Assembly (NCBI GenBank): GCA_046731735.1
Contig: JBKPLP010000155.1
Span: 14,199 to 78,198 of the forward strand
Reading direction: 5' to 3'
Source: Acidobacteriota bacterium
Lineage (GTDB): Bacteria > Acidobacteriota > Vicinamibacteria > Vicinamibacterales > 2-12-FULL-66-21
DNA length: 64,000 nt
Of this stretch, positions 10,671-60,926 are shown piece after piece; position 1 is the first letter of the stretch, and each line of letters opens with the position of its first letter. The position numbers and the translations under genes were made by a program. The notes beneath the pieces were generated by a model that did no database searches, was not told the DNA's origin, and was given only the letters and a program-made list of their open reading frames with translations.

Positions 10671-10730
10671 AGGTAAAAGGTAGAAGGTAAAAGGTAAAAG
10701 GTAAAAGGTAAAAGAGAGCTACCTTCTTCC
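10671..10730. repeat. heptamer tandem repeat AGGTAAA x6 (one AGGTAGA variant) followed by inverted CTACCTTCTTCC
   Basis: Read directly in the 69-bp spacer between the regulator and the kinase genes. Confidence 0.9.
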
Positions 10731-10736
10731 TTGACC

Positions 10737-12134
10737 ATGCAGCGCCCCAAACCCGAGCCGCGATTAAGCCACGATCGCCGAATCCTCCTGATGGCGTTCG
10801 CCTCGGGTCTTCCGGGCGCGGCCATCTCCCTCATCTTCCTGTGGACCGGCGATTTCACGCCGAAAGTCCAGTGGACGCTCACCGTCCTCATCATCACATT
10901 CTGCCTGGGCTTCGCCTTCGCGCTGCGCGAGCGCGTCGTGCTTCCGCTGCAGACGCTGTCGAACCTCCTCGCCGCGCTCGGCGAAGGGGACTTCTCGATT
11001 CGCGCGCGCGGTGCGCACGGCGGCGACCCGCTCGGCGAGGTCATGATCGAGGTCAACGCGCTCGTGGAGACGCTGCGCCACCAGCGCCTGGACGCGCTCG
11101 AGGCCACGACGCTGCTGCGAAAAGTCATGGCAGAGATCGAGGTGGCGGTCTTCACGTTCGACGAGACCCAGGAGCTCAAATTCGTGAATCGCGCCGGCGC
11201 GCAGCTCCTCAGCCAGCCGGCCGAGCGGCTGTTGGGACGCCGTGCCGACGAGATCGATCTGGCGGAGTGCCTTACGGGCGACGCGCCGCGCGTCATCAAC
11301 ACCGTGTTCCCGGGAGGCGTCGGCCGCTGGGAGATTCGGCGCAGCCAGTTCCGCCAGGGCGGACGGCCGCACGAACTGCTCGTGCTTTCGGATCTCAGTC
11401 AGCCGCTCCGCGAAGAGGAACGCCAGGCCTGGCAGCGGCTGATTCGCGTCATCGGGCACGAGATGAACAACTCGCTGGCGCCGATCAAATCGATCGCGGG
11501 CAGCCTGGCCACCATCGTCGATCGCGATCCGCCGCCGCGCGACTGGCGCGACGACGTCCAGCGTGGGCTGGGTGTCATTGCCTCGCGATCCGAGTCGCTC
11601 AGCCGATTCATGAGCGCGTACGCGCGGCTCGCCAAACTGCCGCCGCCCAAGCTGGCGCCGCTCGACGTTGCGGCATTCGTCGATCGCGTCGTGACGCTCG
11701 AGAAGGCGCACCACATTGGCGTCGCGCCCGGCCCGCGGCTGACGATTCAGGGTGACGGCGATCAGCTGGAGCAGCTCTTGATCAACCTCATTCGCAACGC
11801 CGTTGACGCGGTGAAGGAAACCGGAGGCGGGGTGACCGTGGGTTGGCAACGTCTGCCCGGGTCGGTGCCGCTGACGATGGAACTGTGGGTCGAGGATGAG
11901 GGCCCCGGCCTCTCGAATACCGGTAACCTCTTCGTTCCGTTCTTTACGACCAAGCCCGGAGGATCGGGTATCGGCCTCGTGCTGAGTCGGCAGATTGCCG
12001 AAGCACACGGCGGCAGCCTCGTGCTCGAGAACCGGAGCGATCGTCAGGGCTGCCGCGCCAGCCTTCGGCTCCCCGTCCACGCCCTGGCGCAGTTGCGCGC
12101 CGACGCCGCGGAATCCCAAATAGTCAGCCGTTAG
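10737..12134 (+). CDS. sensor histidine kinase (TM-HAMP-PAS-HisKA-HATPase)
   Basis: H-box GHEMNNSLAPI. N and G boxes (NLIRNAVDA, DEGPGL, GGSGIGL). Confidence 0.85.
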   Translation: MQRPKPEPRLSHDRRILLMAFASGLPGAAISLIFLWTGDFTPKVQWTLTVLIITFCLGFAFALRERVVLPLQTLSNLLAALGEGDFSIRARGAHGGDPLGEVMIEVNALVETLRHQRLDALEATTLLRKVMAEIEVAVFTFDETQELKFVNRAGAQLLSQPAERLLGRRADEIDLAECLTGDAPRVINTVFPGGVGRWEIRRSQFRQGGRPHELLVLSDLSQPLREEERQAWQRLIRVIGHEMNNSLAPIKSIAGSLATIVDRDPPPRDWRDDVQRGLGVIASRSESLSRFMSAYARLAKLPPPKLAPLDVAAFVDRVVTLEKAHHIGVAPGPRLTIQGDGDQLEQLLINLIRNAVDAVKETGGGVTVGWQRLPGSVPLTMELWVEDEGPGLSNTGNLFVPFFTTKPGGSGIGLVLSRQIAEAHGGSLVLENRSDRQGCRASLRLPVHALAQLRADAAESQIVSR

Positions 12135-12170
12135 GCGCGCGCTGCGATCTCCGCTACGATCTCCTCCTCG

Positions 12171-13295
12171 ATGTTGCGACGGATTTTTGACGGCCCTATT
12201 GATCTGTGGGCGTTCGGCTTGGCGCTTGCCGCCACGCTTGCCGCCGCGTGGCTGGCAGCTCGCATCGCCCGCCGCGTTACTGTCGTAGCCCTTACCGCGC
12301 TCGTCCGGGACACGGTTTCGTCGGCGAGCCCGCAGGTCAAACGGTTGCTGCGTCTGGTCGCCGCCGCGGCGTTCGTGTTAGCGGTCAGCGTCGTCCTGGT
12401 CCCGGCGCTCGATCTCGCCGGCCTGCGCCCGCGCCGCGGTGTCCATCTCGGTACCCTGGTGGACTGGGGCCTCACGTCAGGGCGCAGGCTCCTGCTGATC
12501 GCGATCCTTGCCTACGCGCTCATCCGTATGACGACGCTGGCAGTGCGGCGATTCGAGCACGAGGTCGGTCTCGGCAGCGGTCTTGACGCGCTCGAACGGG
12601 CGAAGCGCGCCCGGACTCTGGGCTCGGTCATTGAGCGCGTGGTGACCGTACTGGTGACCGGCGTCGCGGTCGTCATGGCCCTGGATTTGTTCGGCGTCAA
12701 CATCGGCCCTGTCCTGACCGGTGCCGGCATCGCCGGACTTGCGGTTGGTTTCGGCGCACAGACGCTGGTGCGCGACGTCATCAGCGGATTCTTCCTGATC
12801 CTGGAGAATCAAGTCCGCGTCGGTGACATCGCGACGATCAACGGAACGGAAGGTCTGGTGGAGGCGATCAACCTGCGGACGATCGTGCTGCGCGACCTCG
12901 AAGGCACCGTCCACGTCTTCCCGAACGGCGCCATCAACACGCTCGGCAATCGCAGCAAGGACTTCTCGTACTACGTGGTCGATCTCGCGGTGTCGTATTA
13001 CGACGATCCGGACCAGGTTGCCGAGGCGGTGCGCGAAGTCGGCGCCGGGCTGCAGGCCGACCCGGTGTTCGGGCCGTCAATCCTCGAGCCCATCGAGATT
13101 CTGGGAGTCGACGCGTTCGGCGAGTGGTCGGTGAAGATGAAGGTGCGGATACGCACGGTGCCGCTGAAACAGTGGGAGGTCGGGCGCGAGTTGCGGCGGC
13201 GGATCATCAAGACATTCGAGCAGCGCGGCTTCGCGATTCCGTTTCCGGTGCCCGCGACCGCGGTGAGGCCGCAGCCGCCGGCCGGCGCTCAGTAG
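12171..13295 (+). CDS. mechanosensitive ion channel family protein (MscS-like)
   Basis: Several TM helices followed by an MscS beta-domain pattern ([17 protein letters not shown]...). Confidence 0.85.
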
Positions 13296-60390: not shown

Positions 60391-60408
60391 GAATAGGGGC
60401 CGCGCAGG

Positions 60409-60873
60409 CTAGTCGTCGTGGATCGTGACCAGCTTCACGAGCTCGAAGCGCTTGCTGCCATTCGGCGCGGTGATTGTCACCTCGTCGCCTTCTTCCTTGC
60501 CGAGGAGGCCTCGGCCAATGGGCGAGGCAGTGGAGATCAACCCGCTTTCGACGTCGGCGTCCTCAGGCATGACGAGCTGATAGATCGTCACCTGGCCGCT
60601 CGGGTCCTTCAGATGCACGGTCGATCCGAATCCCACCTTGTCGTGCGGAATCTTGTCGAGGTTCATCAGCGAGATCTCGCTGACCCGCTTCTGCAGCATG
60701 CTGATGCGTGACTCGACGAGCCGCTGGCGTTCCTTCGCCGCCTGGTACTCCGCGTTCTCGCGGAGATCTCCCAGCTCGCGCGCACGTTTGATCTCTTTCG
60801 GCAGCTCGGTCTTCAGCTCCTTGTCCAGTGCCTGGATCTCGTCCTCGAACTTCTTGAGCAGACGGGCCTTCAT
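60409..60873 (-). CDS. greA: transcription elongation factor GreA
   Basis: 154 aa. Coiled-coil N-terminus (REN.EY.AAKE) and a C-terminal FKBP-like domain. Confidence 0.9.
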   Translation of the reverse strand: MKARLLKKFEDEIQALDKELKTELPKEIKRARELGDLRENAEYQAAKERQRLVESRISMLQKRVSEISLMNLDKIPHDKVGFGSTVHLKDPSGQVTIYQLVMPEDADVESGLISTASPIGRGLLGKEEGDEVTITAPNGSKRFELVKLVTIHDD

Positions 60874-60891
60874 GGCCGGAATGGTAACAGA

Positions 60892-60926
60892 AATTGCTGA
60901 TGTACGATTGCTGATTGCTGATTGTC
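60892..60926. repeat. heptamer array GATTGCT (x3 clear, x5 with variants)
   Basis: Lies in the divergent greA / methyltransferase spacer. Confidence 0.85.

Follow-up and report, generated by a model that had tools for sequence, protein, structure and literature searches.

A 64-kb stretch of DNA, called the window here, was analysed, in which short tandem arrays of heptanucleotide units lie in many of the spacers between genes, among them those of the ilv and ure operons. The arrays are best explained as hypermutable long simple-sequence repeats (SSRs), that is, variable-number tandem repeats, with a unit of 7 nucleotides (nt) and less often of 8 nt. Probably they are driven by slippage and tolerated outside reading frames, with the arms of array hairpins kept complementary at the DNA level. 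All four features that define the heptanucleotide long-repeat class in the sense of Mrazek (2007) were found in them, namely a head-to-tail unit of 5-11 nt in at least 3-4 copies, an excess over composition, a position outside frames and polymorphism by whole units.

The GC content of the window was 63-67%. Its IlvC was most similar to proteins of Vicinamibacterales and other Acidobacteriota metagenome-assembled genomes, the identities reaching no more than 84% among species representatives and 95% among the proteins of the collection. The window comes from a Vicinamibacterales-like acidobacterium. Exact-protein look-ups with its IlvC and its UreG gave no match.

Period-7 arrays and their place between genes

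Arrays were detected with Tandem Repeats Finder (TRF) and counted when they had at least three copies. At period 7, 11 TRF rows were obtained in the window, while 100 simulations of the entire window under an order-3 Markov model gave an expectation of 0.92, and simulation of only the 29 intergenic spacers with intergenic composition gave one of 0.003. The longest array reached up to 8.3 copies, and no other period was comparably enriched in the window relative to the simulation. In a comparison set of 83 independent ilvC-centred loci (1.32 Mb in total), 135 arrays were observed at period 7 against 15.6 expected, 44 against 9.4 at period 8, and 3 against 11.8 at period 5. Period 7 was far commoner than other periods and than composition predicts, and the arrays were restricted neither to the window nor to its assembly, so that neither of the outcomes named by the earlier note as refuting came about. 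An assembly artefact was ruled out, because the same kind of array occurred in many independent assemblies and the arrays were shorter than one sequencing read.

All period-7 and period-8 arrays of the window were intergenic. Genes were delimited by approximate gene calls with Pfam annotation and spacers were counted from 20 nt upwards; by this count arrays were present in 13 of the 29 spacers (45%) and covered about 14% of the intergenic bases, and the array-free spacers were much shorter. The arrays abut stop and start codons because they largely constitute the spacers. The only in-frame array, at the end of thrB, had period 12, a multiple of 3. The flanking genes were housekeeping genes (ilv, ure, thr, upp, greA). 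The earlier note on this DNA had read the density of arrays inside operons as a sign of mRNA processing or translational coupling. Arrays were found in 9 of 21 spacers between co-directional genes, in 2 of 5 between divergent genes and in 2 of 3 between convergent ones, so operons are not favoured over the other spacer types, and that conclusion is left unsupported.

The arrays of the window, with units and copy numbers from TRF and fold scores (z) for the predicted RNA, are given below.

9201-9225, plus strand: CTGGAAG x3.6, in a 70-nt spacer that has an ABC ATPase gene on one side and a sigma-54 response-regulator gene on the other (Pfam)
10670-10714, plus strand: AAGGTAA x6.4, 9 nt past the response-regulator stop and upstream of the histidine-kinase start; sense strand purine-rich, RNA predicted to be unstructured (z -0.23)
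14916-14939, minus strand: AGGAGAAA x3 (written on the plus strand), 8-mer arm of the inverted pair that lies between a phosphoribosyltransferase gene and rpiB
14981-15010, minus strand: array of the CTCCCTTT type, partner arm of the 14916 array
16999-17028, minus strand: AGGTAAA x4.3 (TTTACCT on the plus strand), in a divergent spacer flanked by an amidohydrolase gene (minus) and upp (plus); sense-oriented upstream of the minus-strand gene, predicted unstructured (z +0.94)
18547-18576, minus strand: GGYTCGC-family array x4.3 (CGAACCG on the plus strand), filling a 33-nt convergent spacer in sense orientation, 2 nt past the stop of a ThiS-ThiF-rhodanese gene
21347-21370, minus strand: period-12 (6+6) repeat GGAAAGGTAAAG x2 (CTTTACCTTTCC as the TRF unit on the plus strand), encoding the KGKGKGKA tail of thrB and lying directly upstream of the ATG of the next gene; thrB stop and next start overlap as ATGA
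33164-33191, plus strand: GGCTTCAG x3.5, period 8, in the 50-nt ilvD-ilvB spacer, with degenerate copies extending into the ilvB ribosome-binding region
35490-35537, plus strand: TTCGCGG (equal to GGTTCGC) x6.9 with 100% matches, beginning at the ilvN stop codon
35555-35630, plus strand: 19-nt A/C-rich repeat ACGAACAGCGAAGCCACCA x4, occupying the remainder of the ilvN-ilvC spacer
36693-36716, plus strand: ATCCCTA x3.4, 5' arm of an inverted pair past the ilvC stop
36763-36781, plus strand: GATTGGG/GATTAGG x2.7, 3' arm of this ilvC-lysR inverted pair
40156-40180, plus strand: purine 8-mer GGAGAAAG x2.8, 5' arm of the inverted pair that lies between ureC and ureE (spacer of 188 nt)
40232-40254, plus strand: TTCTCCCCTTCTCTCCTGCTTCT, pyrimidine partner arm of the 40156 array
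41441-41500, plus strand: mixed CGCGATT/GATTAGG x8.3 (TRF period 7/14), filling the 68-nt ureF-ureG spacer and ending 4 nt ahead of the ureG ATG
42903-42959, plus strand: AGCTATC x3.7, then CAGCCAC/AGCCGCC x4-5, filling the entire 55-nt convergent spacer after ureD
46509-46577, minus strand: degenerate CAATCGN heptamers (TRF period 14/26), directly past the stop of a 188-aa gene (z -2.99) and adjoining a canonical terminator
60893-60924, minus strand: CAATCAG x4.6 (ATTGCTG on the plus strand), in a divergent spacer 20 nt upstream of the greA start, predicted unstructured (z +0.71)

Every array that the earlier note had listed was recovered by TRF at, or within 1-4 nt of, the place where it had been reported, and the CTGGAAG array at 9201, the 8-mer pairs 14916/14981 and 40156/40232 and the 19-nt repeat at 35555 came in addition. 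That one array begins inside the ilvN stop codon proved correct, the first imperfect unit GATTCGC starting within the TGA. The reported absorption of an array into the thrB C-terminus was also seen, as the frame of this GHMP kinase gene ends in KGKGKGKA and the stop across the period-12 array. The close abutment on the ureG start stood, while its distance had to be changed from 3 nt to 4 nt.

The claim that each array has its own unit did not hold. AGGTAAA recurs at 10671, 16999 and 21347, GGTTCGC/GATTCGC at 35490, at 18547 on the other strand and at 41441, and GGGATTA at 36693, 36763 and 41441, so that each is present at three sites, and the recurrent units occur in either orientation. Over all loci, units were shared four times more within a locus than between loci (12% against 2.9%), which indicates that each genome has its own unit families. 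The match between genomes was only 1.5 times that of letter-shuffled units (2.9% against 1.9%), and universal preferred units or a shared binding factor were rejected on this basis.

The trait was patchy across the Acidobacteriota and Chloroflexota loci. Between 5 and 14 heptamer arrays per 20 kb were present in some loci of Vicinamibacteria, Terriglobia and Anaerolineae/Chloroflexota (L009, L010, L014, L036, L045), and none in others, which included L001 and L002, the closest by IlvC of 80 species-representative loci, and two complete Vicinamibacterales chromosomes. L031 and L033 also counted among the array-poor loci. The spacers flanking ilvC held heptamer arrays with unrelated units in many loci of both phyla. 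Gene calls outside the window were GC3-based approximations, and by these the ilvC flanks held 39% of the intergenic arrays and 23.5% of the intergenic bases, a nominal enrichment that is not relied on because such calls overestimate spacer lengths; a hot spot at the ilvC flanks was set aside for this reason.

Turnover and copy-number change

Orthologous spacers could be compared in relatives, namely in the loci L081 and L082 and in ten contigs from different soil samples (L083-L092) with identical IlvC, which is 89% identical to the window IlvC and is present with this exact sequence in many soil samples. The latter ten were fully syntenic with the window from 30.6 to 43 kb (pheA-ilvDBNC-lysR-ureABCEFGD). 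L081 covers neither the ureC-ureE spacer nor the one downstream of ureD.

ilvN-ilvC: window GGTTCGC x7; L082 GGTTCGC x3.5; L083-L092 GGCTCGC, 2-7 copies; L081 GCTCGCG x2, GTTCGCG x3, GCTGGCG x6 and AACGGAT x5
ilvD-ilvB: window GGCTTCAG; L081 degenerate AACGNNN; L082 AAAGTTA; L083-L092 AAAGTTA-type, the AAAGTTA arrays of the relatives having 4-5 copies
ilvC-lysR: window ATCCCTA/GGGATTA inverted pair; L081 the same unit with the right arm grown to about 7; L082 a 19-nt spacer without array; L083-L092 GAATGCT/AGCATTC inverted pair
ureC-ureE: window 188 nt with hairpin; L082 8 nt without array; L083-L092 20 nt without array
ureD-downstream: window AGCTATC; L082 CAGCTTC; L083-L092 degenerate CAGNTNC

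In such spacers the array was kept with a drifting unit, or another unit was present, or there was no array. The ilvN-ilvC array was retained over about 10% protein divergence, while its unit drifted and new arrays budded off alongside; at the position of the 19-nt repeat (35555-35630), the relatives had degenerate A-rich heptamers (AAAACCT/AAAACTC) or AACGGAT x5. Unit turnover and copy-number change, for which the earlier note had proposed this comparison, were both observed.

Copy-number change was directly visible in the ten contigs, which are the nearest available population rather than the source species of the window. Their ilvN-ilvC spacer was 109, 116, 137 or 144 nt long, and the differences came from the number of GGCTCGC units alone (2-7 copies). 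When seven of the contigs were aligned over 11 kb, 28 columns with single-nucleotide polymorphisms and four internal indel blocks were obtained, and three of the four blocks were whole-unit changes in tandem arrays, of 7 nt, 10 nt and 7-28 nt. Since whole units are gained or lost between near-identical strains, the arrays are variable-number tandem repeats, and they are the main source of length polymorphism in the aligned population. The slippage mechanism that had been put forward as one possibility is directly supported by these exact 7-nt steps.

Slippage probably gave rise to the arrays, and the following course is proposed. A short sequence in a non-coding spacer would first be duplicated, and strand slippage during replication would then gain or lose whole units. 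Looped-out units of 7 nt may be too large for efficient methyl-directed mismatch repair, whose efficiency falls for loops of more than 3 nt (PMC4060949), and the changes would persist. Because 7 is not a multiple of 3, such arrays would survive solely outside reading frames; they would accumulate in spacers and might come to form most of a spacer. A point mutation in one unit would spread along the array, giving trains of related units and a slow drift at the orthologous site. Where an array lies in or near a hairpin, the arms would be kept complementary either by template switching within the molecule or because pairing is selected for, giving frequent inverted pairs. The trait is a property of whole genomes (lineages) instead of particular operons, and most arrays are best seen as a tolerated, probably nearly neutral by-product of mutation, occasionally used as spacer, ribosome-binding region or hairpin, and not dedicated regulatory elements.

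Other length changes were noted at the same operons. In the hom-pheA divergent spacer of L082-L088 there was a long inverted pair of period-10/12 arrays (GGTTCTACNNGG... / ...CAGAACC), with one additional 10-nt unit in some contigs; the pair is absent from the window (29965-30609), and it indicates that the paired-array architecture is not restricted to 7-nt units. The ureF-ureG spacer showed a 213-nt presence/absence polymorphism within one population, being 311 nt or 98-101 nt long (L083, L086 and L087 compared with L084, L085 and L089). The long form carried inverted period-8 arrays, CGAAGATC x3 ... CTTCGGAT x2-3, within inverted arms of about 60 nt. The short form kept only the right arm, the left array and the intervening sequence being gone, and the junction was a 4-nt TTCA microhomology. 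The version of L082 was 426 nt long.

Two near-identical IlvC homologues on short contigs (P0001 and P0003) were annotated with 368 and 380 aa, compared with 339 aa, which suggests that gene callers extend the IlvC open reading frame upstream through stop-free repeat arrays.

Inverted pairs, polarity and rival explanations

Arrays of the same period lying within 400 nt of each other were frequently inverted. Among 59 such neighbouring pairs, 26 were reverse complements with at most one mismatch per unit, against a background between loci of 1.3%, and 3 had the same orientation. The copy numbers of the arms were matched (median difference 0.35 units, 1.0 for random pairs), and reverse-complement neighbours with matched arm length were in roughly 35-fold excess. 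Arms were typically about 4.3 units (about 30 bp) long, with loops of 6-268 nt. Three inverted pairs lie in the window. The 110-nt ilvC-lysR spacer has a predicted fold of -48.9 kcal/mol (z -6.5), the pair in the rpiB leader (14905-15020, minus strand) one of -54.2 kcal/mol (z -4.7), and the ureC-ureE pair folds more weakly (z -2.9). In addition, the GGTTCGC array 3' of ilvN is predicted to fold on itself through UCGCGG pairing (-30.2 kcal/mol, z -3.7).

The largest paired array was found in L004, a metagenome-assembled Vicinamibacterales genome, where about 20 nt separated ATTGGCG x15.4 from its reverse complement, AATCGCC x15.1, on the downstream side (17179-17420). This pair would form a hairpin or a cruciform with arms of about 108 nt.

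If hairpins were kept as RNA, G·U mismatches would be expected on the transcribed strand. No such strand bias was present in the 26 inverted pairs, with 53 sense and 57 antisense G·U pairs, and among co-directional cases the sense strand was the more stable in 7 and the antisense strand in 14. The absence of bias points to an origin of the arm complementarity at the DNA level, and RNA-level selection on the hairpin pairs was ruled out as general evidence of function. The process could be intramolecular template switching between the arms, of the kind called quasipalindrome correction (Ripley; Lovett and colleagues), by which a change in one hairpin arm is reportedly copied to the other. It is said to have been described for point or small changes in short quasipalindromes of E. 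coli, and we know of no description for tandem-repeat arms. Acting on arrays, it would keep the arms complementary and equal in copy number without RNA selection, a role that we infer here.

A second family of evidence concerned the orientation of one unit. Metagenomes were scanned for at least four GGYTCGC units, and 80 contigs were obtained (L093-L172). At up to 35 nt after a stop codon the arrays were in sense orientation in 18 cases and antisense in 2, while within 70 nt of a start codon 13 were antisense and 3 sense. The three copies of this family in the window (18547, 35490, 41441) and two in relatives obeyed the same polarity, and it is not accounted for by any one direction of transcription or of replication. 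The RNA (GGUUCGC)7 is predicted to fold better than its complement (-26.3 against -16.7 kcal/mol), and this difference might be the cause of the polarity. A structure filter, with strong folders after stops and weak folders before starts, would fit both this family and the window, where the arrays after stops were structured and those before starts unstructured (z > -0.4); it failed across all arrays, since in all loci foldability did not differ between after-stop and before-start arrays (p = 0.32). The compositional strand biases of the arrays were weak and inconsistent. Several GGYTCGC arrays of the scan lay at contig ends, which is compatible with assembly breaks there.

Several points weigh against slippage and tolerance as the whole account. 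Slippage alone leaves unexplained why 7 nt is preferred over 5, 6 or 9 nt, why unit families are genome-specific, and why exact reverse-complement neighbours of equal copy number are so frequent. The polarity of GGYTCGC on both sides of genes is not predicted by a purely neutral process, and the array hairpin present at ilvC-lysR in two lineages with unrelated units could reflect selection for structure. The account is drawn from the comparison of sequences. Any mechanism must account for the genome-specific families, the excess of matched inverted neighbours and the gene-relative polarity of one family.

Such points leave some room for a reading in which the inverted heptamer pairs are a distinct class of self-expanding intergenic palindromes of Acidobacteriota and Chloroflexota, which is conceivable although improbable. 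Their origin would be either a specific DNA-level process that couples 7-nt slippage with hairpin template switching, or their maintenance as RNA structures between cistrons (RNase III substrates, for instance) that are able to evolve, the sequence turning over while position and architecture persist. The GGYTCGC polarity would be a signature of such a process or function.

Somewhat less credible, and rather unlikely, is that the arrays are RNA elements of polycistronic mRNAs, serving as stabilisers, as RNase III or RNase E sites or as non-canonical terminators, with the unstructured A-rich arrays ahead of starts as ribosome standby sites or spacers and copy number tuning expression. A dedicated RNA function for just a minority of the arrays is judged unlikely to the same extent. 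The strong folds predicted directly past stop codons (ilvC-lysR, the ilvN 3' array and 14905-15020) and the unstructured arrays beside start codons of the window speak for RNA elements, as do the sense orientation and better folding of GGYTCGC after stops, and arms of about 30 bp would be sufficiently long for RNase III. The ilvC 3' spacer of another lineage has an inverted array pair of a different unit, and ilvC is flanked by arrays in many Acidobacteriota and Chloroflexota loci, with the reservation on gene calls given above. In H. influenzae a heptanucleotide repeat works via an RNase III-targeted element of the 5' untranslated region (PMC12721329). Against these stand the lack of G·U asymmetry, the equal foldability after stops and before starts over all arrays, and the equal frequency of arrays in convergent and divergent spacers. 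Copy number was not conserved, with 2 to 7 units in strains whose flanking proteins are identical, and hairpins were gained or lost between close relatives, the ilvC-lysR hairpin being absent from the 19-nt spacer of L082 and the ureC-ureE hairpin from all relatives. The role within operons suggested by the earlier note meets the same objections.

Termination is not indicated either. In a consensus terminator scan of the window, canonical U-tailed terminators were found at 30033-30059, 45236-45259 and 46473-46502, while the large array hairpins had no U tails, and on this ground they were ruled out as intrinsic (Rho-independent) terminators. The sole matches of the scan inside an array were two small stems at 41440-41462.

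That the subset of the GGGATTA family containing G3 tracts acts through a G-quadruplex in DNA or RNA seems very unlikely, even though such action was proposed for the GGGAATC repeats of Xanthomonas and the GGGGAYT repeats of Nostoc (PMC4692102). Units close to these families (AGGGATT/ATCCCTA) are present in the window, L081 and L068, similar repeats including inverted pairs were described by Rehm et al. (PMC4692102), and about eight G3 tracts lie on the sense strand of the L081 ilvC-lysR spacer. The window has a four-tract G3 motif at 36695-36725 on the minus strand; no other such motif overlaps an array there, and this one is antisense. Elsewhere in the window, GGGATTA stretches have 2-3 G3 tracts, and most units, among them AGGTAAA, GGTTCGC, AGCTATC and CAATCAG, have no G3 tract and are unable to form quadruplexes. 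Moreover, since the G-rich arm has a C-rich partner, a duplex hairpin is favoured.

Even less likely are iteron-like binding sites, where one heptamer would be bound by each protein monomer; candidates would be cold-shock-domain proteins for single strands and transcription factors for duplex DNA. CspB occupies direct heptamer repeats at a ratio of one protein to each heptamer, an idea raised for TAACTGA by MacGregor (PMC4679880), a heptamer-binding partner was postulated in Nostoc (bioRxiv 10.1101/2022.06.06.494920), and the genome-specific families would suit such a factor. On the other side, there are at least eight unrelated units in 64 kb, units differ widely from genome to genome (2.9% matching, 1.9% for shuffled units), arrays are also present in 3' spacers between convergent genes, which are not expected to hold a promoter, and copy number is unconstrained.

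Miniature mobile elements (MITE- or REP-like) inserted in spacers are the least probable of all, for although the hairpin spacers look like lineage-specific insertions (188 nt at ureC-ureE against 8-20 nt in relatives) and the 213-nt ureF-ureG polymorphism removes the left period-8 array and the sequence between the arms, there was no sign of a common element sequence, of terminal inverted repeats or of target duplications, unit and loop differ between hairpins at every site, the length changes are single-unit steps inside arrays, and the 213-nt indel is flanked by the TTCA microhomology alone. Dispersed palindromes of the REP/MITE type do not fit, because hairpin unit and loop are site-specific. 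An Rfam scan matched no family at the array positions. CRISPR and replication iterons were ruled out by anatomy, the units being contiguous without spacers and lying in convergent spacers.

Features of the window not connected with the heptamer arrays were also noted. At 24925-25168 an 81-nt unit is repeated 3.0 times with 97% identity (TRF) in the 3' part of a sirohaem-synthase-like open reading frame (24906-25697, minus strand). If translated, it would encode three copies of the 27-aa sequence MLTKRDVDRTSGTSDERVLAGVEGGAP, and the protein would have 263 aa, compared with 185-206 aa in relatives. Upstream of pheA-ilvDBNC, a short open reading frame (30328-30417) for the Val/Ile-rich peptide MRGPVIPGIVVVGVIGRLTGRILARCPHE precedes a hairpin that has a T run (30444-30481), and a similar Val-rich peptide (MRFRVFAVVGVVGR...) is present at the equivalent position in L082-L088; judged by this layout, the region 30328-30481 looks like a leader-peptide transcription attenuator of the branched-chain amino-acid operon. 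On the minus strand at 38570-38865, antisense to the urease alpha-subunit gene, there was an Rfam match to 5_ureB_sRNA (RF02514, 92.6 bits, E 8e-23). The model comes from a Helicobacter antisense RNA overlapping conserved urease coding sequence, and the match may reflect coding conservation and not a small RNA here.

Meaning and comparison with known repeat systems

To our knowledge, neither the reason for a 7-nt unit nor a general function of heptanucleotide repeats has been established. The present case adds two large, mostly uncultured soil phyla to the hosts of such repeats, and in a natural population copy number shifts in 7-nt steps at housekeeping operons. In practice the arrays can serve as strain markers for Vicinamibacterales in metagenomes, and they can mislead gene callers. 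If they are mere mutational by-products, their density shows the extent to which intergenic sequence is shaped by a single slippage bias. A literature search on heptamer repeats and Acidobacteria found no paper.

The resemblance to the cyanobacterial STRR pointed out by the earlier note is sound. The STRR of Calothrix PCC 7601 and Anabaena/Nostoc are likewise heptanucleotide, with several families and many arrays per genome, intergenic and sometimes within operons (PMC4692102). Their host is a (heterocystous) cyanobacterium, while the arrays here belong to a non-cyanobacterial soil bacterium of 65% GC, and the units of STRR1-3 (CCCCAGT, TTGGTCA, CAACAGT) had no tandem copies on either strand of the window.

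The GGGAATC repeats of Xanthomonas and the GGGGAYT repeats of Nostoc were described by Rehm et al. (2015) as intergenic, variable between close species at conserved positions and sometimes inverted (PMC4692102). In the same way, orthologous spacers here retain an array while its length and sequence vary, and the Xanthomonas case is also one of intergenic heptamers in a high-GC genome, with units resembling GGGATTA/AGGGATT. The genomes of that study have one dominant G-rich family with quadruplex potential, whereas many unrelated units and one four-tract G3 region were found here, and neither GGGAATC nor GGGGAYT was in tandem in the window.

TAACTGA direct repeats were reported upstream of starts in marine Beggiatoaceae, some Cyanobacteria and Bacteroidetes (MacGregor 2015, PMC4679880). 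They are concentrated just upstream of starts, are predicted to be unstructured as RNA and are patchy across phyla, as in part here, and some Terriglobia loci have the akin CAACTGA/AACTGAG arrays. That system has one dominant unit of 2-6 copies, whereas here arrays are common also after stops and in convergent spacers; TAACTGA was present in the window in 5 single copies and never in tandem. Membership of these named families (STRR1-3, TAACTGA, GGGAATC, GGGGAYT) was ruled out, since none is tandem in the window.

At hmw1A/hmw2A of H. influenzae a 7-nt unit also lies upstream of a gene and shifts its copy number by slippage (PMC8262952, PMC12721329). There the repeats belong to individual contingency loci, at genes for surface adhesins of a pathogen adapted to its host, and a graded effect on expression was demonstrated, while the present arrays number dozens at housekeeping operons of a soil bacterium. 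In phase-variation contingency loci a change of repeat number switches or grades the expression of the neighbouring gene, which is typically a surface or restriction-modification gene. A regulatory effect of heptamer repeats was tested solely in single cases, namely H. influenzae hmw (PMC12721329) and Nostoc recF/recO (bioRxiv 10.1101/2022.06.06.494920).

The closest counterpart is the class of long SSRs with units of 5-11 nt. Bacteria here and there have been known since 1990 (STRR) and 2007 (genome survey) to contain heptanucleotide repeats in excess. In the accounts of later papers (PMC4679880, PMC4692102), most genomes of the survey by Mrazek, Guo and Shah, which included high-GC Burkholderia, Xanthomonas and Actinobacteria, had more long repeats of the heptanucleotide class than of any other, and polymerase-related slippage was proposed. 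On these accounts the statement that no equivalent was known in high-GC genomes has to be given up, because over-represented intergenic heptamers were reported in Xanthomonas and Burkholderia. As far as the long SSRs are described there and by Huang and Mrazek (2014, PMC4060949), they share with the present arrays heptamers far above compositional expectation, a mostly intergenic position, a patchy phylogenetic distribution, occurrence in high-GC genomes, a proposed origin by slippage and a preference for period 7 over neighbouring periods. The later papers' accounts of the 2007 survey make no mention of Acidobacteriota (Vicinamibacterales, Terriglobia) or of Chloroflexota. Compared with that class, the density here is very high, and inverted pairs were quantified. 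Hypermutable intergenic heptanucleotide repeats are thus already known as a kind, and what is new are the host groups, the density of arrays per spacer, the polymorphism by 7-nt steps within a natural population, the surplus of inverted pairs with matched arms, the genome-specific families and the polarity of one family.

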